The notes beneath the pieces are model-generated. The model did not search any database and was not told the origin of the DNA. It was given only the letters and a program-made list of their open reading frames with translations. The position numbers were made by a program, and so were the translations under genes. Shown here piece by piece: positions 2-28,599 of a stretch of DNA of 30,505 nucleotides. Numbering within the stretch: position 1 is the first letter of the stretch; each line of letters opens with the position of its first letter. This DNA comes from a virus. Taxonomy: Duplodnaviria; Caudoviricetes. The DNA lies in the IMG/VR virus record IMGVR_UViG_3300043932_000276, positions 1 through 30,505 of that record; one strand, given 5' to 3'.

Positions 2-127
2 TGGGCCAAACTTCCTTATGAGGTGCTTGCGCGCATCTCAGCTCGTATCGTCGATGAGGTCGAAGGGGTTAATCGAGTAGTTTATGATGTGACCTCAAAG
101 CCACCTGCGACTATTGAGTGGGAATAA
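2..127 (+). CDS. guaA: GMP synthase, 3' end (partial, host gene)
   Basis: Frame from nt 2 reads [41 protein letters not shown], the canonical GuaA C-terminus. Confidence 0.97.
115..123 (+). repeat. attL core TGAGTGGGA
   Basis: Lies in the guaA terminal codons and is identical to 30413-30421 (TA[T/C]TGAGTGGGA, 11/12 match). Confidence 0.85.
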
Positions 128-246: not shown

Positions 247-274
247 GGATTATTAGTGGCAGAATTAGTGGCAG
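247..274 (+). promoter_or_regulatory. Probable integrase arm-type sites, left (tandem ATTAGTGGCAG)
   Basis: GGATTATTAGTGGCAGAATTAGTGGCAG is nearly identical to 30325-30351; both copies lie inside the att cores. Confidence 0.7.
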
Positions 275-540: not shown

Positions 541-651
541 TCAACGTCCCCCACTGGCTGCCCACAGCAGGAGCGCTAGGGGAGCGACGAGCGCGCAGAG
601 GGCGGCGGCAACGAGCATGGCCACCGCCCAGGAAAGCTCGTCCCGCGTCAC
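541..651 (-). CDS. 36-aa hydrophobic membrane peptide
   Basis: The GTG start overlaps the endolysin TGA (GTGA). MTRDELSWAVAMLVAAALCALVAPLALLLWAASGGR contains one TM helix. Confidence 0.5.
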   Translation of the reverse strand: MTRDELSWAVAMLVAAALCALVAPLALLLWAASGGR

Positions 652-1466
652 GACAGGAGCTCGTTCACCCGTCGCTGAACTGCCGCGTAGTTCGCGCCGA
701 GGCGCCGCCTGCGCTCCTCTCCGTTTCCGTAGTCGCCCCTGATTACCGCACGTGCGAGGGCGTCCACGTCCACGACCTGGGAACGCGGCCTCGCGCCGGC
801 ACCCAGGATCTCGTTCACGCGTGCTTGGACGCGGTCGTAGCTCGCGCCGAGCGCCTTGCGGCGGTCGTCGCCGTTGCCGTATTTGCCGGCGATCACCTCG
901 CGGGCGAGGGCGTCGATGTCGGGGGAGGGCACGGTCGGTGCGGGGCTCGCGGAGGCTGCGCCGCCGGAGCCCATGCGGTCGTACCACAGCTGGGCGCGCC
1001 CGATGTAGGCGCCCCTCTGCGAGCCGTAGATCTGGCCCGGACAACTCGTGCTCGCGAAGTGGCTGTGGGGGAACACGTTGACGTTCCATTCCGGCCGGCC
1101 GAGCCCGTAGAGCCTGCAGAGCGCGGCCACAAGGTGGGCGCCGTTGTCGAGGCAGGCCTCCGAGATCGTGCCGTCCGAGCGGTTGGCGTGCTCGATGCCG
1201 ATGGACCTCAGGTTCTCCGCCCAGAGGCCGGCGTGCCAGGCGGTGTCGCGGTCCCACACCAGCTGGCCAATGCGCCCGGAGCTCTCGACCTGGTAGTGGG
1301 CGGACGCTTTGCGCGTCTGCCACCAGTTCCACACGTCTTCGATGGAGCCGTCCGCGTCGTTGTAGTGTACGACGACGTGCTGGATCCTCGCGCCGCTGCG
1401 GCCATGGCTGAAGTGCTTGTTCATGAGCCTCACGACGTCGGCTTCGCAGCGTGCCCAGTCCCTCAT
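648..1466 (-). CDS. Endolysin: Amidase_2 N-acetylmuramoyl-L-alanine amidase with two CW_7 (Cpl-7) repeats
   Basis: VVHYN..SAHY..AWHAG..SIGIEH..PHSH..CPG amidase motifs, plus two DALAR.VI.G.YGNG..RR..LGA.Y..VQ.RVNE repeats. Confidence 0.93.
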   Translation of the reverse strand: MRDWARCEADVVRLMNKHFSHGRSGARIQHVVVHYNDADGSIEDVWNWWQTRKASAHYQVESSGRIGQLVWDRDTAWHAGLWAENLRSIGIEHANRSDGTISEACLDNGAHLVAALCRLYGLGRPEWNVNVFPHSHFASTSCPGQIYGSQRGAYIGRAQLWYDRMGSGGAASASPAPTVPSPDIDALAREVIAGKYGNGDDRRKALGASYDRVQARVNEILGAGARPRSQVVDVDALARAVIRGDYGNGEERRRRLGANYAAVQRRVNELLS

Positions 1467-1702
1467 CGCGCATCACCCCGCTCGATTTCGGGCGCGTCCT
1501 CGTCGACGCGCTTGCCTATCTCCGCCATCACCGGCGAGAGCACCGCCATCACCAGGGCAACCACGAGCGCCCTCCACTCCGTCGGGAGCGTGGTCGCCCC
1601 CACCAGCATGTCCAGGTTCGCCACGACGACGCCCAGGACGCCCTGGACCACCGTGCGCGCGAGACGCCAGTACCACTCGTTTCCGCCTAGGAAATCAGCC
1701 AT
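1463..1702 (-). CDS. Putative holin (79 aa)
   Basis: MADFLGGNEWYWRLARTVVQG... has two TM segments and overlaps the endolysin start. Confidence 0.75.
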   Translation of the reverse strand: MADFLGGNEWYWRLARTVVQGVLGVVVANLDMLVGATTLPTEWRALVVALVMAVLSPVMAEIGKRVDEDAPEIERGDAR

Positions 1703-1922
1703 CCCTGTCCGCCTTCCTCTCGAGGCCGTCGACGTCGTTTCTGAGGAGCGCCACGTCCCGCTCGAGCTGGTACGTGCGCTCGACGAGGCAGTTGTGCTTC
1801 TCGACCCTGCGCGTGAGCTCGTCAATCTTCTGCTCCGTCACCGCGCGCGACTTCGAGTTGCTGACGATGACGCCGGCAAGCGTCATGCCGCCGGATATGA
1901 GCGCCACGAAAACCGACTCCAA
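1695..1922 (-). CDS. Holin-like/lysis accessory protein (N-terminal TM + coiled coil)
   Basis: TTG start with a GAGGAG RBS. A TM helix is followed by ..IDELTRRVEKHN.LVERTYQLE; it is the first gene of the lysis cassette. Confidence 0.7.
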   Translation of the reverse strand: MESVFVALISGGMTLAGVIVSNSKSRAVTEQKIDELTRRVEKHNCLVERTYQLERDVALLRNDVDGLERKADRDG

Positions 1923-1957: not shown

Positions 1958-1976
1958 ATGGTCCCAGGAGGTCACA
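1958..1976 (-). promoter_or_regulatory. Putative late promoter for the lysis cassette
   Basis: TGTGAC-CTCCTGG-GACCAT matches the motif shared by four late modules. Confidence 0.65.
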
Positions 1977-1986: not shown

Positions 1987-3360
1987 CTATCCCGCGGTCA
2001 GGTAGCCTGCCTGTCCGGCGCGGTCGATTACGGCCATGTTCGCGCCCGTCTTGGTCGAGGAGAACTTCGTGCCGTTGCCGCCCACGAGGAGGGTGTCGCC
2101 GTAGAAGACGTTCGCGCTCGAGGCCAGGGGAGACGGCAGCGCCCAGCTGTCGGACACCAGGATGGTCGTGAGCGCGCTCATGCCCGCGAAGGCGTTGGCC
2201 CAGCGTGTGCAGGTCGAGGGCGAGAGCCCGCGCAGGTCAAGCGTCTTGAGGTTCACCGAGCCGTTGAAGAGGAACTCGGCGCTCACGGGATGGAGGTTCC
2301 CCCAGCCGGAGAAGCTCATGGCGTTGGACTTCGTGTTGTAGAACCAGTAGTCGATGCAGAGGTTGTCGACCGTGGACAGCCCGCTGCCAAAGAAGACGTA
2401 CGCCACTTTGTCGCGGAAGTCGTGCCACGGCATGGAGCCGAGAGCGTTGTAGCGCGCGTTCACGCAGAGGGAGCCGGATGCCATGAGGTCGGGCGTCGCA
2501 CTCTCCCAGCTCGTGTCGATCACGAGCTTTCCGTTCGAATAGAGTCGGGCCTGCGCCCACTGGCGGGCGTCGTCTCCGTCGCAGACGAGCAGCCCGTTGG
2601 CGCCGGTCGTGAACGCCGACGCCCCCGACGTGTCCTTCGCCACAGCGAGATGGCCGCCGACGAGCTTGCGGCAGCCGTAGAACGGGATGCTCGCGCTCGC
2701 GATCGCGGGGCTGTGCGGCGCGTCGCACGAGATGGACCTCAGCTCGGAGTCGCCAGAGAACGCCTGGTTCGCCTTCGTCACCCCCGTGATGCGGTTGAAG
2801 CCCGTCACGCTCGTGAGCGCCGTCATCCCCTGGAACCAGTGGGAGATGTCGGGGAAGCTGACCTTTCCGAGGGACTCGTCGACGCGCACGGACCGGATCT
2901 GCTCGCGGCAGTCGTGCCAGGGCACGTCGGTGTCCCTGGCGTAGCCGGTGGGGGAGAGCTCCCACGACTGCTCGACGTCGTCGCCGAAGTAGGTCTGGGG
3001 ACCGTCGAGGTAGTTAAGCTCGAGGTTCCTCCCGCCGTTGTAGAGGACGGCGCGCGGCTTGAGACCCGTGTCCCAGGAGAGGTCGCGGATCGCCTGGGCC
3101 ATCTCGCCGGGGCGGTACTTCGTGGCGAGGCCGTTCTGGCCTCGTATCGCCCCGGCGATTGACGAGAAGACCGAGTCGGACACGACCCCGCTGCCGCCTC
3201 CCAGGGCGCGTGTCGTGCCCTTGCCCGACTTCGTTCCGTCGAGTGCCGCTATTGCGGCGGCCATGTCAGTCGGCTTATAGGTTGTCGCCGTGCCGTTCTG
3301 CTCGCGGATCGCGTTCGCGATGTCGCCCAGGACGGACTCGCCGATCATGCCCATACCCAT
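1987..3360 (-). CDS. Putative receptor-binding/tail fibre protein with BspA/DUF285-like repeats (457 aa)
   Basis: The ATG overlaps the upstream TGA. It has a duplicated N-terminal IA.AIR.QNG..T.Y.P..MA.AI..L unit and repeated PWHD..., WF.GM.ALT units, and is the last gene of the baseplate cluster. Confidence 0.65.
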   Translation of the reverse strand: MGMGMIGESVLGDIANAIREQNGTATTYKPTDMAAAIAALDGTKSGKGTTRALGGGSGVVSDSVFSSIAGAIRGQNGLATKYRPGEMAQAIRDLSWDTGLKPRAVLYNGGRNLELNYLDGPQTYFGDDVEQSWELSPTGYARDTDVPWHDCREQIRSVRVDESLGKVSFPDISHWFQGMTALTSVTGFNRITGVTKANQAFSGDSELRSISCDAPHSPAIASASIPFYGCRKLVGGHLAVAKDTSGASAFTTGANGLLVCDGDDARQWAQARLYSNGKLVIDTSWESATPDLMASGSLCVNARYNALGSMPWHDFRDKVAYVFFGSGLSTVDNLCIDYWFYNTKSNAMSFSGWGNLHPVSAEFLFNGSVNLKTLDLRGLSPSTCTRWANAFAGMSALTTILVSDSWALPSPLASSANVFYGDTLLVGGNGTKFSSTKTGANMAVIDRAGQAGYLTAG

Positions 3361-4523
3361 CAGTAGCTCACCCCCGAGAGGTCCGGGAACTGTGAGGAGA
3401 CCCACGCCTTCGTGGCGTACGCGGAGAGGTCGGGGGTCGCGCCGTCTGCGCCCCGCGGACCCGTGGCGCCGGTCGCGCCTGTGGCGCCGCGCTCGCCCTT
3501 GAGCCCGGAGAACGCGAACGAGAGCGTCCTGGCGGACGGCGTCCCGCCGAGCGTGACGGAGACGGCGGGCGCGCCCGTCGTGGCGTCCACGGTGGCGGAG
3601 GCGTCCGCGATCGTCGCGTCCGCACCGGCGGGTCCGGTGGCGCCCCTCGCCCCGTTCGCGCCGGCCTCGCCCCTGGGCCCCTGCGGACCCGTGGCGCCGG
3701 TCGCGCCCCGCGGCCCGGTCTCGCCGCGCTCGCCCTTGGGACCTACGAGCGCCGCGAGCTGCTCGGGCGTGAAGTCCGCGTAGGTGAACGCCTCGCCCTT
3801 GGGCCCCGTCGCGCCCGCCGGCCCCTGCGGCCCGGTCGCGCCGGCGTCGCCCTTGGAGCCGCGCAGGTCCGAAGAGCTCGAGCCGCTCGCCGAGGTCACC
3901 GTGAGGACGGTGCCCTCCCACGAGTGGGTGCAGCTCACGCCGTCACTTCCGTCCCTGCCGGCGGCGCCGGCGTCGCCCTTGGGACCCGCGGGTCCCGGCG
4001 CGCCGCGCAGCTCGCCGGCGTCGCGCGCGGCCCGCAGCTCTGCCGCGACCGCAAGGGCGTCCGCCGCCGCGTCCTCGTAGCGCTTGATGGCCTCGACGAA
4101 CAGCGTGAAGCCGTCGCGCACCGCGAGCGTCCCCACGAGGGAGGTGCCCACCTCCACGTCGAAGGCGGGCGTCGCGAGCGTCCTGTCGCTCCAGCTCAGG
4201 ACCACCTCGCACTCCACCGATCCCTCGGCGGCGCACATCGCCGCCGGCCAGAACACGCGGAAGGCACCAGAGGCGGCGTCTGCCGCCTCCATCGGCTCGC
4301 ATCCGCGCGCGTGCGTCTGGCGGTGTCGCCACAGCAGGTAGAGCCGGGTGCCGTCGCCGGAGAGGTCCAGCGGCTCGCCCCCGCGCGTCACCCGCAGCAG
4401 CATCCCTCGCCCGCGCGCGTCCTGCGGCGAGGCCGCGAGGCGCCCGGCAATCGGGCCGTCGCACGCGTCCCACGTGACCTCCGCCAGGCCGTCCGAGTCC
4501 AGCGTCTCAGTCGTCGTTGCCAT
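3360..4523 (-). CDS. BppU-like upper baseplate protein with collagen (GXY) repeats
   Basis: N-terminal Q.D..GR...L.VT.GG.PLDLSG BppU-like domain followed by three Gly-X-Y tracts. Confidence 0.78.
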
Positions 4524-4524
4524 G

Positions 4525-5703
4525 TCAGTACTCCTTGCCCGAGAGGTCCTCGAACGACGAGACCGCGTCCGAGGCCTTCGCCGCCGTCTCCTCGACCGCC
4601 GACACGCGCCGCACGATCTCGGCGCTCGCCTCCCACGTCGCGCGCTCGACGCTGCCCAGGGTCACGTGCACGCGGGCGCGGCCTGCGCCGAACGTGCGCA
4701 CCCTGCGCACGCAGCGCGCCGTGAGCCGCCACTCCGGCGAGCGCGAGCGGTCCACGACCGCCACGTCGTCGCCGAGGCCCACCGGGACGCCACTGTCGAG
4801 CATGGCCACGTCGCACTCGTACGAGACGCGCGGGTGGCATCGCCTGGCGAGCTCCGCCCTGGTCAGCGCCAGCAGCTCGGCGGGGTCATCGCAGTCCGGG
4901 AACACGACGTCCCCAAAGGCGTGCGTGCGTTCGCCCCGCGTGGCGTCCCAGCGGCCCCAGCGCAGGCGAGCCTCGTCGTCCCCGACCCACTTGACCGAGC
5001 CGTTCACGGACTCGAACGAGATCCGGCGGGTGTAGCCACCGGTCGCGTTGCCCTGCTCGTCCTCGATGGGGAGGCCCTTGCCCCAGCCGTAGAGCGCGGT
5101 GCACACCTCGTCCTCGAGCACGGTCCGCGTGCAGCCCGCGAGGTTCACGCCGTACGCGAAGCGCGCCCCCCTCCAGCCGCCCTGGCGGGGGAGAAGGGCG
5201 ACGGCCCGCCTCGCGACCCTGCCGCCCGCGACCTCGCACGAGCACTCGAGCTCGCCGCCCCACACCGACTCGACGCGCCGGAGAGCCGCGAGCGCGTTCG
5301 TGTGGTACAGGAGCGCCCCGCGCCTGGCGTCGCCCACGCCGACCTCGCCGGGCGACCAGCGCGTGTGTGAGAGCACCGCCGCCATCGCCTGCGCGGCGGT
5401 CCTGCTCACCAGCTGCTCCTCCTCCACGTAGTCGCGCAGGAGCTCGCAGAGCGACGACTCCGCGTACACGCGGCACGAGCCGCCCTCGGCCTCGTCGGTG
5501 CGCACGACCTCGTGCTCGCGCCAGGCGCCGGTCTCGGGGTCGCGCCACACGATCCGGTCGCCCTTGCCGGGCGCCTTCGCGCAGGCCAGCTCCAGCGTGT
5601 CCTCGCCGCCCAGCTCCTCGGCGTGCGTCACCGAGCCCAGGGTGGCGAGCACGCCCAGGCGCTCGTCCCAACGGTCGAACAGGTACAGGGTCGGAACCGC
5701 CAT
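4525..5703 (-). CDS. Tal / prophage tail endopeptidase-like baseplate hub (392 aa)
   Basis: [19 protein letters not shown]...[11 protein letters not shown]...WGGEL...RFAYGVNL...TALYGWGKG...P.VSYECDV; follows Dit. Confidence 0.85.
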
Positions 5704-6422
5704 CACGCCCACCTCTCCCGCCAAGAGACCAGGTGAGAAGAGCAGCCCTCGAACGCCAGCGCGGCGCGTCCCGGCGCGAGGCGGAAGAAGTCGCTCCCCA
5801 GGGTCACGTCGGCCGTCGCGTCGGCGCCGTTCACCGTTACCGTCTGCGCGCCGCAGTCGATGTGGACCAGGTCGCCCGCCGCGAGCGCGCGTGCCAGCTC
5901 GACGCGCTCCCCCGTCCCCGTGCACGCGACGGAGGCGCCCGAGCCCGCCGTGGCCGTCAGCTCCATCACCGGCCGCGTCGGCCAGGTCCCGCCCACGTCG
6001 AACGCGTCGCCCGCCGACGAGCGCTCGGCGCCGTAGGCCATGGGGTCCAGGCACAGGAACGTCACGGTCGCGGAGGCGTCCGCGAGCGGCCCCGTCCAGC
6101 CCGTGGATCCCGCGCATACGACGTCGCGCCACTCGAGCCCCGGCTCGCCCGGCACCACGAGCGTCCCGCCGCCGTCGGCGAGGAGCCATGCCCGGATCGT
6201 GCGCCGGACCCCGGCGCGCTCCGCGGCCGTGAGCGCCTCCGGGGCGTCCAGGTGCAGGCGCACCCGCAGCTCCAGCGGCTCCACGTCCGACGAGACGAGC
6301 GCGAGCCCCGGCCTTCCGGGCACCCGCGCCGTCTCCGCCGCAAGCGAGTGCGCCGCTGGCCACTCCAGCTCCGCGCTCACGTAGGGCGAGAGCGGACGGC
6401 CGCAGAACGTAAGCGAGCTCAC
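5703..6422 (-). CDS. Distal tail protein (Dit, Sipho_tail family)
   Basis: LTFCG...VPGRPG...TVTFLCLDPMAYG...GTWPTRPV...SDFFRLAPG...WRERW is a typical Dit pattern. Confidence 0.88.
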   Translation of the reverse strand: MSSLTFCGRPLSPYVSAELEWPAAHSLAAETARVPGRPGLALVSSDVEPLELRVRLHLDAPEALTAAERAGVRRTIRAWLLADGGGTLVVPGEPGLEWRDVVCAGSTGWTGPLADASATVTFLCLDPMAYGAERSSAGDAFDVGGTWPTRPVMELTATAGSGASVACTGTGERVELARALAAGDLVHIDCGAQTVTVNGADATADVTLGSDFFRLAPGRAALAFEGCSSHLVSWRERWA

Positions 6423-6595
6423 AGCTGGCCCCGAGCCCTGGCGTACGCCGTCGCCCTGCGCTGCTGCTCGCGCCCGAGGCGGTCCGCCTCGGCGGGGGCG
6501 CCGCGCCGGTCGGCCTCGCGGATGCCCTTCCGGAGCGTCTTCGCCACCACGTCGCGGTCGTCCACGCCGCGTCCTCCGCGCACCTTGTCAGCCAT
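6419..6595 (-). CDS. 58-aa protein in the tape-measure position (mini or vestigial TMP?)
   Basis: Not in the ORF track. MADKVRGGRGVDDRDVVAKTLRKGIREADRRGAPAEADRLGREQQRRATAYARARGQL* overlaps the upstream gene by 8 nt and Dit by GTGA. Confidence 0.65.
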   Translation of the reverse strand: MADKVRGGRGVDDRDVVAKTLRKGIREADRRGAPAEADRLGREQQRRATAYARARGQL

Positions 6596-7001
6596 CCTGG
6601 ACCACCACCGTCATCGTCATCCCAACGTCCCAGACCCAGCGCCCCGATCGGTCGCGCCCGTAAAGGCGCGGCAGACCCACGTCGCAGGCAACGATGCGCA
6701 TGCGCGGCGGGGCGGCGGCGTGCGCCCAGTCGATGCCCCTCAGGCCGCGCGACACCTCCCGCGCCGTCACGCGGGCGTCCGTCCTGTCGTCGCAGCACAC
6801 GTGGGCGAGAAGGGCGCGCCGCCCGCGCTCCGAGCCGTCGTCCTGCCTGCACTCGCGCTCCCAGTCGCCCATGGAGACGACGATCGGCTCCGTGCAGAGC
6901 CGGGGCGCTACGGGCGCGTCGTAGGCGTTCGCGTAGCCCAGCGAGCGCAGCGCGTCGCGCACGACGCGCGCCTCGTCGGGAACTCCCGTCGTCCAGGCCA
7001 T
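6588..7001 (-). CDS. Tail terminator / minor capsid-like neck protein (137 aa)
   Basis: Synteny, TGATG coupling and a C-terminal P.L.GRD.SGRW.W motif. Confidence 0.65.
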   Translation of the reverse strand: MAWTTGVPDEARVVRDALRSLGYANAYDAPVAPRLCTEPIVVSMGDWERECRQDDGSERGRRALLAHVCCDDRTDARVTAREVSRGLRGIDWAHAAAPPRMRIVACDVGLPRLYGRDRSGRWVWDVGMTMTVVVQDG

Positions 7002-7327
7002 CACCCGACCTCCAGCTCCCAGTGGTGCACCTGTCCGCGCACCACGCAGCACCGCCTGCACCTCAGCACGCGCATGCCGGGGAGCGACCCCACGACCACG
7101 CGGCTGCCTGCGGGCACCTCGAAGGCGTCCCGGCTGTTCACGGCGTCCACGAACACGCGGCCCGAGCGCGCCGAGTCCCTGTGCGGGTCGTCCGCGACGT
7201 CGTCTGCGAGCTCCAGGCGCACGTGGCGCACCATGCGGGCGTCCCCGTAGCCGCCCTGCCCGTCGGAGGGGAGCACGAGCATGTCGTCGGGCAGGAGCCG
7301 CCTCGGGATGGGCCTCAGGTACCTCAT
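7001..7327 (-). CDS. Head-closure / minor capsid protein (108 aa)
   Basis: MRYLRPIPRRLLPD...VFVDAVNS...VHHWELEV; ATGA-coupled; synteny. Confidence 0.7.
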   Translation of the reverse strand: MRYLRPIPRRLLPDDMLVLPSDGQGGYGDARMVRHVRLELADDVADDPHRDSARSGRVFVDAVNSRDAFEVPAGSRVVVGSLPGMRVLRCRRCCVVRGQVHHWELEVG

Positions 7328-7719
7328 GGGCAGCCCGCCCCCGAGAAGGCGAGCCCCGTGCCCGCGAGCTCGGAGAGCGCGGCCGCGCGCGCCACCTCCA
7401 GGCCGGTGGTGCCCTTCTCCATGTAGTTCGTCACCCTGAAGTCGCCTATCGCGTAGCCGCCCACGCGCCCCTCGCCGAACTCGGCGAACGCCTCGGCGGC
7501 GGCGCAGCAGGCGCGCGCCCAGGCCTCGAGGTCGGCGGTCTCCAGGCCGTCGTCCGCGGCCCCGCCGCACAGCTCGCGCACACACCTCAGAGCGGCGGGC
7601 ATGGCGTCCGAGAAGGACGCCGCGTCGAGGGAGCCGCCGTACGAGTCTCGGTAGAAGGCGAAGGAGGGGCCGGCCGCGGCGGCCCCGCCCGCGACGCCCG
7701 ATGCCTGCGGGAACCCCAT
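7324..7719 (-). CDS. Head-tail adaptor/connector
   Basis: FAFYRDSYGG...ACCAAAE...IGDFRV...LAGTGL.F.G; directly follows the capsid gene. Confidence 0.72.
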   Translation of the reverse strand: MGFPQASGVAGGAAAAGPSFAFYRDSYGGSLDAASFSDAMPAALRCVRELCGGAADDGLETADLEAWARACCAAAEAFAEFGEGRVGGYAIGDFRVTNYMEKGTTGLEVARAAALSELAGTGLAFSGAGCP

Positions 7720-7723
7720 GGCG

Positions 7724-8608
7724 CTACGCCGCCGGCGCCGCGCTCACGGCCACGCCCGCGAGCTTGTTGTCCATGAGCTCCACGATGCCGTACTTGCGGT
7801 ACTTCATCATGTAGCTATCCAGGTTCTCCAGCTCGTCCGGCGAGAAGACGCGCGAGGCGACGTGCTTGTCGAACTTGATGACCGCACTCTTCTCCACGAC
7901 CATGAAGTTGATGGCCCGTCCGTCCGTCGCCTTCGCGTAGCCGAACTTCTCCGAGTCGCCGGAGTTGAGGGCGATCTTCGTGTAGAAGCGCGCCTGCGGC
8001 ACCTCCACGACGCGGCAGAAGCGCGTGAGGACGCGGCTGCTCATGTTCGGGTTCGCGAGCGAGTAGTCGTCGAGCACGCCCTTGAGCGTCGGCGTGATGA
8101 ACAGGTAGCGCGAGCCCGGCGTCACCTGGGCCTCGTCCATCGCGTTCGTGACGGAGCGGAGGGCCGCCAGCACGTCCGTCGCCTTGGCCTTCGAGAGGTC
8201 GGCCTCGGTCACCGAGACGCCCTCGTGCGAGGCGATGGTCGCGTAGGTGAAGGCGTCGGCCTCCGGCGCCACCTGCGTGCGCTGCAGCTCGGCGCCCGCC
8301 TGCACGAAGCAGTCAAGGACGCCCGCCTCCTCGACGTCCATCACGTCGGCGAGGAGCTTGATACCGCGGTCGTAGTTGAAGGCCTTGGTCTCGTAGGCGA
8401 AGTCGATCGAGCCCGTCTTGTAGCCCACGTTGCGCGTGTAGTCGCCGAGCCCCGTCACGGATATCCTCGGGATCATGATCTCCTTCGCGTTGCGCCCCGC
8501 GCGTGCCATGCGTGCGGGCGAGTTCAGGTACGAGCTCGTCGCCTCCCGCTGGTAGACGCGGTCCAGGATGGTCGTGTAGTTCTTGATTGCTGCGATGCTG
8601 TTGGCCAT
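7724..8608 (-). CDS. Major capsid protein
   Basis: MANSI....Y...LD.VY...I.IP.I...GLGDY.R..GY..G...DRG....D.MD.EE...PE.DA pattern; follows the scaffold gene. Confidence 0.9.
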   Translation of the reverse strand: MANSIAAIKNYTTILDRVYQREATSSYLNSPARMARAGRNAKEIMIPRISVTGLGDYTRNVGYKTGSIDFAYETKAFNYDRGIKLLADVMDVEEAGVLDCFVQAGAELQRTQVAPEADAFTYATIASHEGVSVTEADLSKAKATDVLAALRSVTNAMDEAQVTPGSRYLFITPTLKGVLDDYSLANPNMSSRVLTRFCRVVEVPQARFYTKIALNSGDSEKFGYAKATDGRAINFMVVEKSAVIKFDKHVASRVFSPDELENLDSYMMKYRKYGIVELMDNKLAGVAVSAAPAA

Positions 8609-8611
8609 GCC

Positions 8612-9157
8612 CTAGCCCTCCTTGCCCTCGTCGGTGAGGCCTGCGATTCTCTCCCAGCGCTTCATGTACTGGTCGTCAGAGCCACCGGATGCGCCCGCCG
8701 GCTCCAGACCGGTGGCGCCGCCTTGGCCCGGGTCTCCGGCGTCGAAGAGCCACGGCTCGGCCTTCGCGAGCGCGGCGACGTCTCCGTCGTGCTCTGCCAG
8801 GAGCGCCTTCGCGGCGGTGACGGAGCGGGCGCCCGCGCTTCTGAGCGCGAACTCCGTGCGCTCGTCGGCGAGGCGGGCCTTCAGGTCGGCGATCTCCTTG
8901 CCGAGCGCCTCGGTGGCTTCTGCCGTCTTGGCGGCCTCGGCAACCTTCGCCTGGAGCGCCTCGATCTCGGCGTCCTTGGCCTTGAGCTGTGCGACGTAGT
9001 CGGTGCCGTCGTCCCCGTTCACCGCGTCCTTCTGGGGCGCCTGCTGGCCCTGCTTCGACTGCGCGCCGACGCCCTGCTCCTGCCCGCCCTGGTGCTGGTT
9101 CTCGCCCTGCCCGACCTGGTCCTGCGCCTGCTGCACGCCACTGGGCTCATCCTCCAT
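8612..9157 (-). CDS. Capsid scaffolding protein (181 aa)
   Basis: RBS GAAAGG, acidic coiled coil with AL..AGA....AAKALL...EPWLF, immediately upstream of the capsid gene. Confidence 0.82.
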   Translation of the reverse strand: MEDEPSGVQQAQDQVGQGENQHQGGQEQGVGAQSKQGQQAPQKDAVNGDDGTDYVAQLKAKDAEIEALQAKVAEAAKTAEATEALGKEIADLKARLADERTEFALRSAGARSVTAAKALLAEHDGDVAALAKAEPWLFDAGDPGQGGATGLEPAGASGGSDDQYMKRWERIAGLTDEGKEG

Positions 9158-9185: not shown

Positions 9186-9221
9186 AAAGAAAAATGCCCG
9201 CACCTTCTAGGTACGGGCATT
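9186..9221 (-). terminator. Intrinsic terminator after the Abi gene
   Basis: Minus strand reads AATGCCCGTACCTAGAAGGTGCGGGCATT followed by TTTCTTT. Confidence 0.75.
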
Positions 9222-9237
9222 GTCCTGGGGTGTCACA
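9219..9237 (-). promoter_or_regulatory. Putative late promoter for the head/baseplate operon
   Basis: TGTGAC-ACCCCAG-GACAAT. Confidence 0.65.
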
Positions 9238-9268: not shown

Positions 9269-10105
9269 CTACTTCAACAATCCTTGGCTTTTGCGCCACT
9301 CATACGTCTCCCAGTAATACTCAACGAGAGTCAGGCAGCTCCCAACGGCGAGCTTTGCGTGGCGAACGGGAAGGGGCTGAAACTGTGCGGTGTGCCCATG
9401 GCCGTCCCCATAGGCATTGCGAAATTCAATGACGCCGGTCGCAAGACCCTGAAGGCTACCGAGGATTTGCTTAACGATCTTACCTTCGGGACCATTCGTA
9501 TCTACATCGCCGACGGCGACTTTGAGCAGCTTCGCAGCCTCTTTAGATAACCTCGGGGCATCCCAGTCGTCTGGTATGCCAATGCCTTGGTTGGCAAGAA
9601 TCGTCTTGCAGCAGCTCTCGAGAACTTCTTTTGATTTGCCAATGGCATCAGTCGGATGCTCGGTGCGCATCTTCATAAGAAGGTCGATCTGCTCGTTCAT
9701 GGACTCGCTTGAGAATTCTTTCTTGATGAAGTCTGCCGATTGCTTGTACGGCGATGCGATAGATTTCTCGCGCTCAACGAACTTCTTGCATTGACGGTAT
9801 CGGGGACCGTAGTTCCTGTCCGCATACTGGGGATGCGGGTAGTCATCCCAGCTCTCAAACTCGCACTGGTATCGAGTCTCGTAGTATTCGAAGAGGTCGA
9901 AAAGAAGGTGCTGTGAGTCGACGAGGCTGGCTTCGTTGATATAGGCAACAAGGGACTTCCCCTTTGAGAGTCGATAGTGCTCGCACAGGGGGATTCCCAC
10001 TGAGCCCAGGGTAAAGGTGTCGAACTCATTCGTGCTGAAGTCGAGAACCCAGCCGCCCCTGTTAAAGAGGTCGCAGAGAAGGCCCATTTCGTTCTTGCTA
10101 AGCAT
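9269..10105 (-). CDS. Abortive infection family protein (AbiJ-like N-terminus + Abi_C/HEPN-like C-terminus)
   Basis: FNRGGWVLDFS...F..FT...SKGKSL at the N-terminus and AIGKSKE.LESCCKTIL...E.RN.YG.GHG at the C-terminus. Confidence 0.85.
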   Translation of the reverse strand: MLSKNEMGLLCDLFNRGGWVLDFSTNEFDTFTLGSVGIPLCEHYRLSKGKSLVAYINEASLVDSQHLLFDLFEYYETRYQCEFESWDDYPHPQYADRNYGPRYRQCKKFVEREKSIASPYKQSADFIKKEFSSESMNEQIDLLMKMRTEHPTDAIGKSKEVLESCCKTILANQGIGIPDDWDAPRLSKEAAKLLKVAVGDVDTNGPEGKIVKQILGSLQGLATGVIEFRNAYGDGHGHTAQFQPLPVRHAKLAVGSCLTLVEYYWETYEWRKSQGLLK

Positions 10106-10115
10106 ATGGGGCGTC

Positions 10116-10925
10116 CTAACTCAGAAACTTTCCTAGGGCCCCCATAGCCAAAGGAAGTAGCACCTTGGCCAGGTCAGAGCTGCTCTTTGCCAGGCTTGCC
10201 AGCTTCTCGAGCTTTTCCGAGAAGGTCATTTGGTCACGGGTGCTGGAAGCGGCATCAAGATCCTTGGCCGCCTTGAGAGCCTGCTCCTTCAAACCGCTGT
10301 CAACGCCATCTATGTCTATGATTGCCTTCAGCGTTGTAGTAAGGGAGACGTCCTTGACGTTTACACTGGAGTCGGAGGAAGACTCAGCGTGCGAGGCGGC
10401 ATCGATGTTAATCGTGGGAGTGAACTTGTTGATGATTTTGGTGCCGCTTTCCGAGCCCATCTGATCTAGGAACCATCCTTCCGCATAGCTTCGGCCATTG
10501 TCGGTCACGATGGCCGACGTGAGCGTGTCGTCCGCTGCTAGTCCGTCTATGAGCCCGTGTCGCTTCAATGTCCAGTAATCGACGATGCGGTCTTCGTCCA
10601 CAGTGACGAACTGCATTTCGCCTGCTTTCTTGAGGGCCTTATCCTCGGCTGCCAGCTCAAGAGCGAGCTCGTCTGCCTCATCGTCGAAGGCTATGAAGGC
10701 GCGGCGCTGTGCCCTGGCTGTATCATAGTGCGATGCGCCAGAGCTGGTCAGGTTCTGAAAGTAGACATGGCCGCTAAAATCGGCCTCAGCCTTTATGAGT
10801 CCCCGCTCTCTGAGTGTCATCGCCCCGCGGGAGTGCTTCTTGCATACCGGCTGGCCGAAAGGGCCATCCTGGTGCAGGTACAGGTAGGCGAGGGCCGCCT
10901 CCTGCTCAACAGTCAAACCGTTCAA
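10116..10925 (-). CDS. Hypothetical cargo protein (269 aa)
   Basis: TTG start with an AGGAG RBS. Two winged-helix-like segments and an amphipathic C-terminus; 10 bp upstream of the Abi gene. Confidence 0.7.
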   Translation of the reverse strand: MNGLTVEQEAALAYLYLHQDGPFGQPVCKKHSRGAMTLRERGLIKAEADFSGHVYFQNLTSSGASHYDTARAQRRAFIAFDDEADELALELAAEDKALKKAGEMQFVTVDEDRIVDYWTLKRHGLIDGLAADDTLTSAIVTDNGRSYAEGWFLDQMGSESGTKIINKFTPTINIDAASHAESSSDSSVNVKDVSLTTTLKAIIDIDGVDSGLKEQALKAAKDLDAASSTRDQMTFSEKLEKLASLAKSSSDLAKVLLPLAMGALGKFLS

Positions 10926-11086
10926 ATAAAACTCCTAGTCATCCAAATACCGCTAAGGCGATGTATGGGGTTGAAAGCACCGCCAGGGTGTTTTACCTTG
11001 CTAGATGTAATGGAGGAGGCAAGCCCGCCAGAACCCGCCTCCTCACGCAGTGCATAGGGCCTCGAGGGGAGAGTACCTTTGGGGCC

Positions 11087-11197
11087 CTACTTCTTTCTCA
11101 CGCGAACGTGAACGTGCCGGGTGACGGTGCCGGTCTTCACGATGCGACCGCTCTTAGTAACCCGGAACTTGGGAATTCGTACCTTAACCGTAGCCAT
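11087..11197 (-). CDS. 36-aa highly basic micro-protein
   Basis: RBS GAAAGGTGG precedes MATVKVRIPKFRVTKSGRIVKTGTVTRHVHVRVRKK*. Confidence 0.6.
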   Translation of the reverse strand: MATVKVRIPKFRVTKSGRIVKTGTVTRHVHVRVRKK

Positions 11198-11398
11198 AGA
11201 ACACCACCTTTCAGCGCTATCGAAATCGTTCCGTTCCGTCTGGGGCCGTGGTTTGCCGGTCACCTCCTCGCGAATTGGGACACAGCTCGGGCGTCTATGG
11301 GGAAGATAGCAGGAAGTCATGTGATTTACAATCCTTGTCCCAAAACAAGTTTACTTTGTCCTATACTGTCTTTGTCAGGAACTAGGATAGGGACAGCC

Positions 11399-12445
11399 AT
11401 GAAGAAGCGCAACGTCATCAACCTCATCAGGTATCACGAGGAACGCAACGAGTCCGCCTTCCGCAGCGAGGCGGCCGAGATAGCGCGTGACTTCGACGCC
11501 AGCGGGGACTATCAGCTCGCCGAATACATCATGGCGCTCGTCTCGGACGCGAATGCCTTCGTGCCGCAATCCGATGACGAGGGCGGATTCTTCCGCAAGC
11601 TCGAACCCTCCTCTTCGCCGCTGCCGCTGCCCGAGGCCATTTCGGCGGACGTGACAGGCATCTGCAACGCCATCGCGCACAACGCCGGCGTCAACAAGTT
11701 CCTCTTCCAGGGCCCTCCGGGGACGGGTAAGACTGAGACGGCGCGACAGATTTCCCGCATCGTCGGCCGGGAGCTCTTCGCGGTCGACTTCAACGTGGTC
11801 ATAGACAGCAAGCTCGGCCAGACGGCCAAGAACATCGGAAGCCTCTTCGAGCAGATCAACTCCCTACGCTTCCCCGAGCGCGCAATCATCCTCTTCGACG
11901 AGATCGATGCCCTCGCACTCGACCGCATCGATACGCATGACGTGAGGGAGATGGGACGGGCGACCTCGGCGCTGCTGCGGGAGCTCGACGCTATGAGCGA
12001 CCAGGTGGTGCTCATCGCGACGACGAACCTCTACGGCTCCCTGGACAAGGCGCTTTCGAGGCGCTTCGACGCGATCATCGACTTCGGGCGATACACGCGC
12101 GAGGACCTGCTCGATATCGCGGACGTGCTCCTCAGCGGGCTCCTCCAGAGGTTCAGGGGGGCGGGCCGCGACATGCGCCTGTTCAGGAAGATCATGTCGC
12201 AGATGGAGGAGATTCCCTATCCCGGTGAGCTCAAGAACATGCTCAGGAGCGCTCTGGCGTTCAGCAGCCCCGATGACCCCTACGACTACCTGCGCAGGCT
12301 CTATGCCCAGGCCTGCCCCGGATCGCCTGTGAGCGATCTCGCGCGCCTGCGGGAGCAGGGGTTCACGATGAGGGAGATCGAGAAGCTGTCGGGCGTCCCG
12401 AGGAGCACGGTGTCACGCGAGCTGAAGGGGGGCTCCGATGAATGA
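11399..12445 (+). CDS. AAA+ ATPase with C-terminal HTH (IetA-like)
   Basis: Walker A GPPGTGKT, Walker B ILFDEID, ATTN..LD.AL.RRFD, and C-terminal GFTMREIEKLSGVPRSTVSRELK. Confidence 0.9.
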   Translation: MKKRNVINLIRYHEERNESAFRSEAAEIARDFDASGDYQLAEYIMALVSDANAFVPQSDDEGGFFRKLEPSSSPLPLPEAISADVTGICNAIAHNAGVNKFLFQGPPGTGKTETARQISRIVGRELFAVDFNVVIDSKLGQTAKNIGSLFEQINSLRFPERAIILFDEIDALALDRIDTHDVREMGRATSALLRELDAMSDQVVLIATTNLYGSLDKALSRRFDAIIDFGRYTREDLLDIADVLLSGLLQRFRGAGRDMRLFRKIMSQMEEIPYPGELKNMLRSALAFSSPDDPYDYLRRLYAQACPGSPVSDLARLREQGFTMREIEKLSGVPRSTVSRELKGGSDE

Positions 12446-14645
12446 CCTCCTCGAGCTCAAGGGCCAGTTCCAGCACAGCAAAGCCCAGCAGCCCGGCGCC
12501 CCGGAGCTGCCGAGGGGCCAGAAGGTAACCTCGGATAAGTTGCGCTCGCTCGCCAGCGACTTGTCCCGCATCCGGGACTACTTCGAGGAACAAGGCGTAT
12601 CGTTCGGCCCCCTCGTGAGCGCCCACTACAGGACGGTCGTGGCAAAAAGCAACCGGATTCGCAGAATCCTGGGGAGCGACGGCAACGCGAGCAGGCACAT
12701 CGTCGGGGCGAGGTTCGAGGGCGAGGGTGCTGACACGCACCATGTCATCACCTACTGCGTCGGCGCAGACGTGCTCGACGAGAGCATCGACGTTCTGGCG
12801 GCGTGCGCCAACGTCGTAGACGAGCGCTTTGCTGGGGCGATTGACGACGAGGGCCTGAGGAGGGTCAACGCGGGGGGACTGAGGGAAGACGCGGGCATCA
12901 AGAAGTCGGCATTCGCCCAGATAATACGCGACGCTCACTACGTGACGCGGTTCGACGTGCAGACCACCACGAGGGACATCGACGAACCGGCAGTCGTGAG
13001 CATATACGACGTCGGATATCGTGACGTGCGAGCCTTCCTCGCGGACCTCGGCCTCGCCCTCACACCCGACAGGGTGCTGGGCAACTCGTTAAGGCTCAAT
13101 GCCGACGAGTACGCGAGGCTCGCTTCCCGCTATCCCTACCTGGTGTCGATGGCCGTATCGGACATTTCGCTCCTCACACAGGACGATTTCGATATAGAGC
13201 GGCCAGAGGTCGCAAGCATTCCCGAACCCGGCGACGAGCCGATCATCGGCGTCATCGACACCCCTTTCGATGACCGGGTCTACTTCGCTGACTGGGTGGA
13301 GGACCACAACCTCATTCCGGAGGAGATCGGAACAGAGTATAGCGACATGGTCCACGGGACGGCTGTGACGTCCATCATCGTCGACGGGCCGAACATCGAA
13401 CCCGACCTCAATGATGGCTGCGGGCGCTTCCGTGTCAGGCACTTCGGGGTCGCCAAGGGAGAGCGTTCGAGTTCGTTTGGCTTCATGAGGCGGGTCAAGG
13501 AAATCGTTGAGCAGAACCGCGATATCAAGGTGTGGAACATCTCGCAGGGGTCGATGCTAGAGATAGAGCGCAACTCCGTGTCGCCAGAAGGCGCCATCCT
13601 CGATGACCTGCAGGCAAGGTTCGATGACATCGTGTTCGTGGTGGCGGGGACGAATCAGACGATCAATGGGAACCAGGTCAAGATTGGTGCACCGGCTGAC
13701 TCGATAAACTCCCTCGTCGTGAATGCGACGGACTTCTTAGGTCGGACGGCGAGCTATTCGCGTAGGGGCCCGGTCCTCGACTTCTTCAAGAAGCCGGACG
13801 TGTGTGCGGTCGGTGGCGACAGGGACCGGCCCATGCACCTTTGCGTGGGCACTGGCGAGACCTTCAAGTCTGGCACGTCCTTTGCGGCCCCCTGGGTTGC
13901 GCGCAAGATGGCCTACCTCATGCAGGTGATGGGGCTGCCCCGCGAGGTTGCGAAGGCGCTTATCATCGATTCGGCGGCTGGCTGGGACTACAGGGCCGAC
14001 AGGTATCGAGGCTATGGCCAGGTCCCGATAAGGATTGAGGACGTGGTGGAGGCCCAGAACGACGAGATAAGGTTCTTCCTCGCTGGGTCGGCTGACGAGT
14101 TTCTCACCTACAACTACGGCATCCCCGTGCCAATAGTAAAGGAAAAGTATCCCTACGTGGCCAGGGCAACACTCTGCTACTTCCCGAAGTGCGACAGGCG
14201 CCAGGGCGCGGACTACACCAGCACGGAGATGGACCTCCACTTCGGGCGAATAGACAACAGGGGGAAATTGAAGGCGCTCGATAACAACCGCCAGGGCGAG
14301 GAGGGCTACACGACCACCGAGGAGGTTGCGCGAAAGAACTACCGCAAGTGGGACAACGTCAAGCACATCGGCGAAGCGTTCGGGGGCAACGTTCGCGAGC
14401 GCAAGGCCTACGACACGGGGATGTGGGGAATCAAGATACGTACGACGGAGCGCGGAGATGAGAAGCTTGGCCGTGGCATGAGATTCGGTGCGGTAGTCAC
14501 GTTGAAGGAAATCAACGGGGTTAACCGTATAGATGACTTCATCCAACGGTGCGCCCTCAGAGGTTGGATTGTCAACCGGGTTGACGTCCAGAACCGCATT
14601 GATATATACAACGCCGCCGAAGTAGTTCTACATTTTGATGAATGA
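12438..14645 (+). CDS. S8 subtilisin-like serine protease (IetS-like)
   Basis: Catalytic triad motifs IGVIDT, HGTAV and SGTSFAAP; 8-nt overlap with the ATPase gene. Confidence 0.92.
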   Translation: MNDLLELKGQFQHSKAQQPGAPELPRGQKVTSDKLRSLASDLSRIRDYFEEQGVSFGPLVSAHYRTVVAKSNRIRRILGSDGNASRHIVGARFEGEGADTHHVITYCVGADVLDESIDVLAACANVVDERFAGAIDDEGLRRVNAGGLREDAGIKKSAFAQIIRDAHYVTRFDVQTTTRDIDEPAVVSIYDVGYRDVRAFLADLGLALTPDRVLGNSLRLNADEYARLASRYPYLVSMAVSDISLLTQDDFDIERPEVASIPEPGDEPIIGVIDTPFDDRVYFADWVEDHNLIPEEIGTEYSDMVHGTAVTSIIVDGPNIEPDLNDGCGRFRVRHFGVAKGERSSSFGFMRRVKEIVEQNRDIKVWNISQGSMLEIERNSVSPEGAILDDLQARFDDIVFVVAGTNQTINGNQVKIGAPADSINSLVVNATDFLGRTASYSRRGPVLDFFKKPDVCAVGGDRDRPMHLCVGTGETFKSGTSFAAPWVARKMAYLMQVMGLPREVAKALIIDSAAGWDYRADRYRGYGQVPIRIEDVVEAQNDEIRFFLAGSADEFLTYNYGIPVPIVKEKYPYVARATLCYFPKCDRRQGADYTSTEMDLHFGRIDNRGKLKALDNNRQGEEGYTTTEEVARKNYRKWDNVKHIGEAFGGNVRERKAYDTGMWGIKIRTTERGDEKLGRGMRFGAVVTLKEINGVNRIDDFIQRCALRGWIVNRVDVQNRIDIYNAAEVVLHFDE

Positions 14646-16893
14646 CCATTCTGGGGTAATTGCGATAGTGGTAGGAAAAAGAGAAGAAAAGAGCGACATG
14701 AACGATAACGCAGGAGAAGAATATACGGCAATAATGCCTTTTGACAGCCTATATCAGGCTTCAAAAAAAGAGGCAAGTAGGAAAAAGCCAGTCTTTTTCA
14801 TACATAAATACTTCGCTCGAAGAATAACTGCTAATTTCAGAATGGCCTTGTTAGGTTTTATGGCAAGTCGAAATGACGACGTCTTAAAACAATTCTATGA
14901 GCCTTCACCTAATCGGGAAGATATTACTGTTTTAGACCCGTTTATGGGCGGTGGTACGACAATCCTTGAGGCCCTCAGATTTGGATGCAAAGTAATAGGC
15001 AATGACTTACAGCCACTGTCTTTATTCGTGACGAGAGCTCTCGTAGAGCCAATGGATACAAAAGCCGTTGATGCAGCGGTAAGATACCTCGGGAGAACAG
15101 TCGGCAAAGAGATACAAAACTATTACAAGACAAAGTGCCCTTGCTGCGGTGAAACAGCAGATGTCATGTATACCTTTCATGTCAAAAAGGTAAAAACAGG
15201 GGGACAATGCAAAGAGCATAGATTTTTTTCAACTTTTATTTTGGCATATAAAAAGGGCGAATTTACTGTCGTATGTCCAGAATGCGGGAGAGTATCCAAG
15301 ACAACGTTCAAGGACGGTCCTTTCCACTGTGAGTGTGGATGGGAACTGAAGGATCCTCATAGTTCATATGTCAAGAACGGTGTATTTACATGTCCGAAGT
15401 GTGGCGAGTCGAGGGTTCTATCCGAATACAGTAATGACCCTGACTCTGGGTATCCTTTTGCAACAGATATCGTTGCTCTAGAGTATTACTGCCCAAATTG
15501 TGGCGCCCATGATTACAAGCAGCCAGACTACGAAGACAAAGCTCTCTATGAAAAAGCAAAGGCTGATTACTGCAAGTATGCTGAATCACTTCCGATACCC
15601 CAGCAGGTGATTCCAGCGGGCTATAACACAAACCAGATAATTAACCATGGATATCGAAAGTTCAAGGAGCTTTTTAATGAACGGCAGCTGCTTTGCTTAG
15701 GTCTACTTTTAGATGCGATTAACGGAATAGATGACAAGCAGACCCAACTCTGGTTACAACTCGCATTCTCCGGAATGCTAGAAATGAATACGATGTTTTG
15801 CCGATACCAACAGAATGCGTATAAGATATGCAACATTTTCTTTAATCATGCCTATGTTCCTATCACTATGCCAGTCGAGAATTGTGTTTGGGGAACAAAG
15901 CTGGGAACCGGAACCTTTATCAAAACAATCAAGAAAATTGAGCGTGGAAAAAAGTTCAATAGCAATATGTATGATATTTCAGTTGTGAAGAATAATGAAG
16001 GTAGATATGATTCGGTGAAGAACTTCAACGGGGATCAGGTAGCTGCTACACCAGTTACAGTATTCGATAAAGTTGACGGACAACACCCACTTTTAAGATG
16101 CTCGGATTCCCGAGATCTTTCTTTTATTCCGGACGCTTCAGTAGATTTGGTACTGACTGACCCTCCTTATGGGGCAAATGTCATGTATTCAGAACTAATA
16201 GACTTTTTTCATGTTTGGAATTATAAAAGCACGCTGGCCGACGACTTGGGCTTTACGGAACCGCTTTCTCCTAAATCAAAAGAGATTGTTGTTAATCCGG
16301 TCGCCGGAAAAGACATTCAGTATTACGAAGAGGGTCTCACGAAGGTACTTGAAAGATGCCATGATAAGGTACGGGATAGTGGGTATTTAGTCTTCTCGTT
16401 TCACGATAAGCATCTGGAAAGTTGGCTGGCGGTTCTGGAAAGTGTCTGCAAAGGCGGTTTCAAGTTGGTGAAATGCTACCCGGTGCAGTCTGAAACAAGA
16501 ACTGGCGCGCATACATCAAACAAGAATTCAATAGGAATTGATTTAATGCTTGTTTGCAAGAAGATTTCGTTAAACGATGCGGGTGGCACCGTGCCAGGGA
16601 TAGATGTAAAAGACGCCAGTTTACAAACGATGAAGTATCTTTGCAAAACACTCGATAGGCTAGAATCCGTAGAGGCGGAGATAACGTTGCCTGATATGCA
16701 AAACATTGCTATCGCGTACTACTATTCCGTACTGCCTACAGCTTGCCTTACTGACGAAAACTGGCGACGCGTTGCAGTTAAAGAACTTAAGCAAACCCTG
16801 AGAAATGTAGAGGGGTTGTCAAAAGACTACACAATCGCTGATAAAAGGACTGGCTGGTGGTCTGAGCTCTATAAAAAGAAATGGGATGTATGA
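14638..16893 (+). CDS. Large amino-methyltransferase, probably m6A, with Zn-ribbon insert (COG1743/DUF1156-like); alternative start at 14698
   Basis: HKYFARR, motif I DPFMGGGT, multiple CxxC and motif IV TDPPY; visibly AT-rich. Confidence 0.87.
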   Translation: MNDHSGVIAIVVGKREEKSDMNDNAGEEYTAIMPFDSLYQASKKEASRKKPVFFIHKYFARRITANFRMALLGFMASRNDDVLKQFYEPSPNREDITVLDPFMGGGTTILEALRFGCKVIGNDLQPLSLFVTRALVEPMDTKAVDAAVRYLGRTVGKEIQNYYKTKCPCCGETADVMYTFHVKKVKTGGQCKEHRFFSTFILAYKKGEFTVVCPECGRVSKTTFKDGPFHCECGWELKDPHSSYVKNGVFTCPKCGESRVLSEYSNDPDSGYPFATDIVALEYYCPNCGAHDYKQPDYEDKALYEKAKADYCKYAESLPIPQQVIPAGYNTNQIINHGYRKFKELFNERQLLCLGLLLDAINGIDDKQTQLWLQLAFSGMLEMNTMFCRYQQNAYKICNIFFNHAYVPITMPVENCVWGTKLGTGTFIKTIKKIERGKKFNSNMYDISVVKNNEGRYDSVKNFNGDQVAATPVTVFDKVDGQHPLLRCSDSRDLSFIPDASVDLVLTDPPYGANVMYSELIDFFHVWNYKSTLADDLGFTEPLSPKSKEIVVNPVAGKDIQYYEEGLTKVLERCHDKVRDSGYLVFSFHDKHLESWLAVLESVCKGGFKLVKCYPVQSETRTGAHTSNKNSIGIDLMLVCKKISLNDAGGTVPGIDVKDASLQTMKYLCKTLDRLESVEAEITLPDMQNIAIAYYYSVLPTACLTDENWRRVAVKELKQTLRNVEGLSKDYTIADKRTGWWSELYKKKWDV

Positions 16894-16953
16894 TTGTTTG
16901 GGATTCATTAGCTAGTTAGTTAGTCAAACCGATTGGCGATTATTCCGTTGGAG

Positions 16954-16994
16954 ATAGATAACGGGACCATACAAGGTATGGTCCCGTTATCTAT
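16954..16994. terminator. Perfect 19-bp inverted repeat between the convergent MTase and REase genes
   Basis: ATAGATAACGGGACCATAC-AAG-GTATGGTCCCGTTATCTAT. Confidence 0.75.
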
Positions 16995-17001
16995 GGGCGT
17001 T

Positions 17002-28508: not shown

Positions 28509-28599
28509 CCCGAGAACGAAGGCGGCCCGCGGGAGCTGGCACTCCCACGGGCCCGTTGTCCATTCCAAAGGCATATTCCAGAAAGGACGGTGACAGTAT

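Follow-up and report, generated by a model that had tools for sequence, protein, structure and literature searches.

What becomes of a siphophage-type tail when the genes for its shaft are gone? The question is raised by IMG/VR record IMGVR_UViG_3300043932_000276, a 30,505-bp stretch of viral DNA (the window, meaning here that whole stretch) that contains one whole integrated prophage of ~30.3 kb, inserted in guaA. Tube and tape measure are treated as indispensable in tails built on Dit and Tal proteins, yet this element has genes for a type-1 neck and a Dit-Tal tip and none for a tube or a tape measure. We show that it belongs to a natural lineage without tube and tape measure that is nonetheless under selection and mobile.

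Neck and tip genes without a shaft

The order of genes on the minus strand is a 135-aa open reading frame (ORF), TerS, TerL, portal, 9 kb of cargo, scaffold, major capsid protein (MCP), head-tail adaptor, head closure, a 137-aa ORF (the tail terminator, see below), a 58-aa ORF, Dit, Tal, a BppU-collagen fibre, a leucine-rich repeat (LRR) protein, two holin-like genes and an amidase (Table 1). The genes from scaffold to Tal are contiguous, as the preliminary description of the window had stated, with junctions that overlap or nearly abut. Single contigs from two public runs cover the terminator-Dit junction (X1, 98-8594; X7, 3949-8594), and since both cross it unbroken, the meeting of neck and tip is no assembly artefact. 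Read depth in X7 is ~506 over the head-tip genes, a figure set aside because no host flank can be compared with it.

The relatives that retain a tail are Coriobacteriia siphophages with the same capsid family, phrog_422 (L101/G404, L093/G405, L122 and the Eggerthella phage PMBT5, whose MCP the window MCP matches at 41%). They have homologous TerL, portal, scaffold, MCP, adaptor, closure, terminator, Dit and Tal genes in the same order, but they alone carry a minor head gene, a tail-completion gene (Ne1), a major tail (tube) protein (MTP), two chaperones (TAC1 and TAC2) and a tape measure protein (TMP) of 770-1000 aa, together with a longer Tal (median 748 aa versus 406 aa in the family, or ~340 aa more) and a late motif of another kind. 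Near-complete records of these tailed sisters, four in all, are 37-38.5 kb long, compared with 30-35 kb for the family; PMBT5 has 30.9 kb in a 56-nm head, which equals the size of the family elements.

No tube, chaperone or tape-measure family was found among 32 scanned ORFs of the window, which bears out what had been claimed earlier, and profiles of these proteins built from the tailed sisters matched nothing in the window. The six sister-type profiles (minor head, Ne1, MTP, TAC1, TAC2 and TMP) were absent from 146 family loci, from 13 whole regions and from 5 further family records, while two tailed controls matched all six; no tail family was found among 85 cargo ORFs from 8 elements. The earlier list of missing parts is correct for tube, chaperones and TMP, and had overlooked that the tail-completion and minor head genes are missing too, the former being absent from a neck that is otherwise of type 1. 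There are two separate losses flanking the kept terminator, Ne1 on one side and the block from tube to TMP on the other. With no MTP gene found by PHROGs/Pfam or sister profile, and only an ORF of 45-66 aa in the terminator-Dit interval, where a siphophage has its TMP and chaperones, the family departs from a long-tailed siphophage on both counts.

By orthology and predicted fold, the 137-aa ORF is a true tail terminator and not a tube protein. In tailed phage L101 its family aligns over the full length to the gene immediately ahead of the tube gene (98.5%, E 3.5e-15) and has no meaningful match to the L101 tube protein (E 0.86); its predicted model, with a predicted local distance difference test score (pLDDT) of 92, matches lambda gpU, T5 p142 and neck chains of a gene transfer agent (GTA) and SaPI1 (Z 10-13, root-mean-square deviation ~3; Z 11.9 for the GTA particle chain). 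The suspicion that a neck ORF might really be a tail tube is thus answered.

The mini-ORF between terminator and Dit occupies the tape-measure slot, with the same position and the same 4-bp overlap with Dit as the TMPs of the tailed sisters. It is present in 37 of the first 38 loci, and its 72 distinct versions, 45-66 aa long with a net charge of ~+7, contain R[RK][AS]xx[YH]xRARG in all but two cases (70/72; the window version has RRAxAYxRARG at its C-terminus). Over the last 20 codons pN/pS is 0.07 while synonymous change is ordinary, which argues for selection on the peptide itself and not on the ribosome site of Dit. The best-scoring match of the mini-ORF falls at the C-terminus in 3 of 22 TMPs, and similar words are found at the ends of some sister TMPs.

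A common DLxxxxF/Y tag closes Tal and BppU in nearly all cases and is likely a shared dock for the LRR protein, which itself is likely the receptor-binding protein, judging from gene position. The tag of Tal is missing in L019/L098 and L263, which have no mini-ORF, and in L006, which has the most degenerate one; it is missing also in L005, where the mini-ORF is normal. The first three cases give no more than a hint of a link between mini-ORF and Tal. The tags of the window (4525-4550 and 3360-3385) are short and acidic-hydrophobic, and in L007 the two are identical.

An old and mobile lineage in Coriobacteriia

An MCP query returned 49 viral loci, in 38 of which the terminator adjoins Dit (Dit 32-99% identical); the remainder are nine loci whose MCP is distant and lacks these neighbours, and two in which only part of MCP matched. 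Queries with MCP, Tal, Dit and terminator in three collections gave 121 loci with distinct terminator DNA. The terminator-Dit gap is below 400 bp in 119 of them, and the two exceptions, with 4,312 bp, are tailed sister phages; since the loci were collected with family-derived queries, this count measures the uniformity of the family and not its share among phages. The preliminary description had argued that an MTP and TMP at this junction in close relatives would betray a recent deletion, and that conservation of the terminator-miniORF-Dit adjacency under purifying selection would speak for the opposite. The 119 loci side with the latter: dN/dS is 0.16-0.24 for MCP, adaptor, closure, terminator, mini-ORF, Dit and Tal (24 disjoint pairs, 64 loci).

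In a Dit tree of about half of the loci, the family forms one side of a single branch (39 versus 23 rows, support 100/99), and the same holds for Tal, MCP, closure and terminator trees (FastTree 100, 99, 82 and 99; about a third of the loci, with long-branch warnings). The five phylogenies show a single origin of the family, and its tip genes have not been swapped with those of tailed phages.

Nearly all named hosts belong to the Coriobacteriia, and the family is widespread in members of this class from gut, rumen and digester. A family-type Dit occurs in 16 of 401 Coriobacteriia genomes, with the arrangement confirmed in 9 of the 16, and at E<=1e-10 the terminator profile retrieves 108 clusters, counting fragments, among representatives at 50% identity. 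No cultured family phage is found among 50,697 GenBank phages; cultured isolates carry family elements. Between Gordonibacter and Kribbibacterium isolates, which belong to different families, the DNA from closure to Dit is 94.6% identical, and between Collinsella and Olsenella it is 90.9% identical. Attachment (att) repeats delimit elements of 30.3 kb (guaA), 30.5 kb (tRNA-Glu), 33.0 kb and 34.7 kb (tRNA-Val). These data confirm a lineage that is old, mobile, spread across host families and inserted at many att sites, and that is not a recent deletion.

Nor do the elements look like gene transfer agents, which would sit at a fixed locus without integrase or replication genes: they have an integrase, a primase-helicase, varied att sites and a spread across host families. 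The likeness to RcGTA, the Rhodobacter capsulatus GTA, and to other short siphophage-type tails lies in the stack of adaptor, stopper, terminator, Dit and hub. RcGTA has kept tube rings along with a short tape measure, and it packages DNA of the host, whereas the family has no tube gene and its elements are mobile.

Which particle the family may build

The late genes appear to be under a regulon of their own. The motif TGTGAC-N7-xANNNT, in which seven bases separate TGTGAC from a -10-like hexamer, occurs four times in the window (0.43 expected), and across loci TGTGAC lies upstream of TerS (8/8), scaffold (25/26), holin (41/41), BppU (40/75) and portal (8/15); the controls gave 0/84 for MCP, 0/86 for Dit and 2-6% for shuffles. 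Two tailed records have GCGACAC sites and no TGTGAC motif. The 135-aa Myb-like/Zn-ribbon ORF before TerS is found in 5/5 family records and 0/5 tailed ones, and its product has no PDB sequence match (best E 0.06) and Atlas matches below 0.9. We infer that the motif is a promoter and the 135-aa protein its activator, perhaps of a new type among phage late activators. Overlapping inverted repeats and a U-run (z -3.6) lie between the motif and the start of the scaffold gene (9160-9225, minus strand), with similar hairpins in many relatives, possibly a terminator/antiterminator switch.

Given that tube and ruler genes are absent, the particle would be either stub-tailed, with the tip docked on the neck, or completed with a tube from another phage. 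Both readings had been proposed before and both are still live; we place the tube-less one first, because the full tip is under selection, the lysis genes are present and the late regulon is the family's own. That the family makes its own tube-less, stub-tailed virion, with the terminator ring directly on the Dit ring, is in our judgement an even call. In such a cycle the 135-aa protein would switch on the terminase, head-tip and lysis operons at the motif, DNA would be packaged by headfuls, and portal, adaptor, stopper, terminator, Dit and Tal would stack without tube rings; the basic mini-peptide could serve as a plug in Dit/Tal in place of the tape-measure end, the LRR protein would dock onto the tags of Tal and BppU, and the loss of ~6 kb of genes would leave space for 8-14 kb of cargo. 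The stub on such filled heads would measure roughly 25-30 nm by our estimate. Candidates for aiding DNA entry are host uptake proteins and co-entry with a second phage. Terminator, tube and Dit have a common beta-hairpin stacking platform, according to PMC10747895, so that a zero-ring stack is geometrically plausible; terminator-Dit covariation (mutual information with average product correction, 74 paired loci, effective depth only 21) shows no excess over control pairs and speaks neither way. More tentative is the fuller history, in which a siphophage lineage turned podophage-like by tube deletion, with the terminator capping Dit, a 50-60 aa peptide replacing the tape measure, infection across four Coriobacteriia families by an entry without tape-measure channel, and tail genes traded for defence and metabolic cargo. 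If a zero-ring tail exists, it would be a living transition from long to short tail and a direct test of the role of the tape measure in DNA entry.

Several results weigh against a tube-less virion. DNA entry is its weak point, and no membrane segment is predicted in any family virion protein, compared with four in a sister tape measure. Loss of the tube in TP901-1 leads to tail-less capsids and loss of Dit (PMC4493119); since that phage without its tube yields bare capsids, a tube-less design would need adaptation. The comparison of the mini-ORF with tape-measure ends is not significant (hhalign 0.7%), a search in longer proteins gave 7 matches and no TMP, and the mini-ORF was lost in at least two lineages (L019/L098; L263), where the terminator abuts Dit. 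Hypervariable cargo and a minimal replication module are as in satellites; a domain scan found no S24 domain on the window's two repressors. Four of 12 genome regions are truncated, without terminase, portal or replication genes, a neck or tip gene is shortened in 13 of 89 loci, and no particle or circular form has been observed. Six of the 7 longer matches to the mini-ORF were examined and proved to be mis-started or fused family ORFs.

The truncated regions, along with a 46-kb insertion in genome G412, are also what would be expected of a prophage that is defective, or of a domesticated defence island, with phage genes in decay after a deletion. We consider this very improbable, and as a general account it is contradicted by purifying selection on every neck and tip gene, by the same junction with Dit down to 32% identity, by two separate clean losses around a kept terminator, by att sites at guaA, tRNA-Glu and tRNA-Val and by the near-identical DNA in isolates of different families; a recently deleted prophage would have intact close relatives and relaxed selection, and neither is found.

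The main rival is a satellite that supplies its own head, neck, terminator, tip and lysis genes and for which a co-infecting siphophage would provide the tail-completion protein, tube, chaperones and tape measure; we rate it as possible and somewhat doubtful. The 80alpha completion protein binds tape-measure N-termini (PMC11661146), so that the lost genes form one physical module around the tape measure, and a helper's tape measure would supply the missing membrane conduit. The repressors without a detected S24 domain, the defence-rich variable cargo, the several copies per genome and the cross-family spread fit this reading as well, and at least 3 of 16 carrier genomes hold another tailed prophage (G331 has two). 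Yet lysis genes are kept under the common late motif, which would be costly if particles were incomplete, and that motif is unlike that of the tailed sisters; Dit, Tal and terminator stand in long-stemmed clades without exchange with tailed phages and would still have to fit a helper's tube, and a selected peptide occupies the tape-measure slot. No tape measure or cos terminase was found in four of five host genomes tested (G234, G179, G003 and G004), in a search that missed known Tal genes in two genomes; a helper need not be co-resident, and we treat co-residence as neutral between the tube-less and satellite readings. The isolate Olsenella sp. An293 has three family copies, no TMP match and no detected phage tips of any other type. 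Under the satellite reading the particles would be long-tailed and have the receptor specificity of the satellite, the mini-peptide would act as an adaptor or, as a decoy, jam the tip of the helper, and only the shaft would be stolen, with the element's own tip kept.

Tail theft as such is shown by phage-inducible chromosomal islands that form capsids (cf-PICIs), and the family resembles them in having integrase, repressor, primase-helicase, its own capsid and terminase, defence cargo and no tube or tape measure (bioRxiv 2022.09.08.507074); the window has the defining set of capsid, portal, connectors and terminase with an integrase/repressor/primase module. The prototype cf-PICI, by the same text, is 15.4 kb long, has no tail genes and needs helper tails. 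The family differs in encoding terminator, Dit, Tal, fibre, adhesin, holins and endolysin, with tail genes under selection, in a PBSX-type TerL and SPP1-type portal in place of HNH-terS-terL packaging, and in its size of 30.3-34.7 kb between att repeats. The family does have the PICI-like traits that had earlier been taken to fit a satellite, namely insertion at guaA, a minimal replication module and defence cargo, but several other sites are used besides guaA, and its genes for morphogenesis come from tailed siphophages and not from PICIs.

Improbable, in our estimate, is a third course in which tube-less particles lack injection of their own, so that they adsorb and release DNA to uptake proteins of the host, ride a helper virion as MiniFlayer does, or are decoys while the element moves otherwise. 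The tip proteins have no wall-hydrolase domain and no membrane-spanning one, and Tal is shortened relative to the tailed median, which would suit this course. DNA entry of RcGTA, for comparison, requires host competence genes. MiniFlayer, one of the Streptomyces satellites MiniFlayer and MulchRoom, is a short-tailed, fibre-bearing particle that binds its helper's neck, and like the family these satellites are actinobacterial with their own capsid (PMC10690885). On the other side, the LRR protein family and the fibre resemble ordinary cell-surface adhesins, and the family has its own primase-helicase, unlike MiniFlayer, and its own replication and lysis genes; these satellites have small capsids and no primases, and for them the accessible text of PMC10690885 mentions no Dit/Tal tip.

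In the full-text literature searched, mostly outside subscription papers, no prophage is described that has terminator, Dit and Tal while lacking tube and tape measure, nor is a tube-less design or a tip-keeping satellite. Of 10 E. lenta prophage clades in PMC8778435, 6 have a TMP, a point on which that paper does not remark; no family member matched in its searchable text, and its supplementary tables might list some.

Ends, cargo and other features of the window

Table 1. Features of the window, in order of position.
Feature	Position	Strand	Basis or remark
att core, repeat TGAGTGGGA	115..123	+	guaA 3' end; read from sequence
28-bp direct repeat	247..274, again ~30325-30351	.	sequence; putative function
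endolysin (Amidase_2 + CW_7)	648..1466	-	PHROGs/Pfam scans
holin-like, two hydrophobic segments	1463..1702	-	phrog_443, E 0.002
small membrane protein, head of lysis operon	1695..1922	-	putative holin-like label
late-promoter motif before lysis genes	1958..1976	-	TGTGAC-N7-xANNNT
BspA/LRR-like protein	1987..3360	-	Atlas score 0.97 to LRR cluster
BppU-N + collagen fibre	3360..4523	-	domain scan; end tag as in Tal
Tal, 392 aa	4525..5703	-	PF06605
Dit	5703..6422	-	phrog_33, PF22768
58-aa basic mini-ORF	6419..6595	-	tape-measure position; no family match
tail terminator, 137 aa	6588..7001	-	orthology to tailed sister + predicted fold
head closure / stopper	7001..7327	-	phrog_793
head-tail adaptor	7324..7719	-	phrog_541
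MCP	7724..8608	-	phrog_422, E 3e-69
scaffold protein	8612..9157	-	PHROGs scan
late-promoter motif before scaffold	9219..9237	-	TGTGAC-N7-xANNNT; marks cargo edge
cargo, portal-scaffold interval	9269..18298	.	Abi_C protein, IetAS, methylase, ScaI-like nuclease, unknowns
portal, SPP1-type	19115..20503	-	PHROGs/Pfam scans; motif upstream
late-promoter motif before portal	20536-20554	-	TGTGAC-N7-xANNNT
TerL, PBSX type	20946..22229	-	PHROGs/Pfam scans
TerS	22229..22747	-	PHROGs scan; motif upstream
late-promoter motif before TerS	22789-22807	-	TGTGAC-N7-xANNNT
135-aa Myb-like + Zn-ribbon protein	23914..24321	-	candidate late activator
primase-helicase (prim-pol + DUF927)	24545..27322	-	PHROGs/Pfam scans
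excisionase/Cox-like	27353..27574	-	PHROGs/Pfam scans
two XRE-type helix-turn-helix repressors	27840..28995	+	domain scan
tyrosine integrase	28995..30209	+	PHROGs/Pfam scans
second att core, then displaced guaA stop	30413..30421	+	sequence

The 3' end of guaA fills window positions 1-127 (...KPPATIEWE*, stop at 127), and a displaced copy of it lies at ~30400-30425; the 9-bp core is common to both ends, 30.3 kb apart. The core was placed by eye, a global alignment of the two window ends having failed to locate it, and the 28-bp direct repeats are likely integrase arm sites. The right end of the element holds the integrase, two repressors, excisionase and primase-helicase. A contig from run X14 departs from the window at position 126, just where guaA ends, which would be expected if a related host had an empty guaA site or one with another filling. 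No Rfam match was found anywhere in the window.

Cargo varies from copy to copy and comprises IetAS, type II restriction-modification, Abi, glycosyltransferase and DmsA-like genes, which the elements thereby move among gut and rumen Coriobacteriia. Glycosyltransferase clusters, possibly for surface modification, are cargo in L207, L210 and L213 (G234 and both G179 copies), while L231:7060-13911 has two DmsA-like molybdopterin oxidoreductases and a ferredoxin, with a QacE-like match at 15436-16068. The G412 insertion (L245-L248) lies between portal and scaffold, contains many long co-oriented ORFs and may be a conjugative element lodged within the cargo slot. The ~400-bp spacer between TerL and portal (20550-20945), with repeated CTTCTCGAC words, is where relatives have variable genes, such as the UzuA-like gene of G001.

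Many family MCPs are 337-347 aa long and not 292-294 aa, owing to a ~45-aa insertion (L007-L013, L015-L016 and others; MCP at 10001-11040). In the early-branching, mini-less lineage G409/G410 (L252-L255) the integrase follows the lysin at the far end, and there are two BppU genes. This order was considered as a sign of an excised circle and rejected: G409 sits in tRNA-Val as a provirus flanked by 55-bp tRNA-Val repeats, so that the gene order is unusable as evidence of activity.

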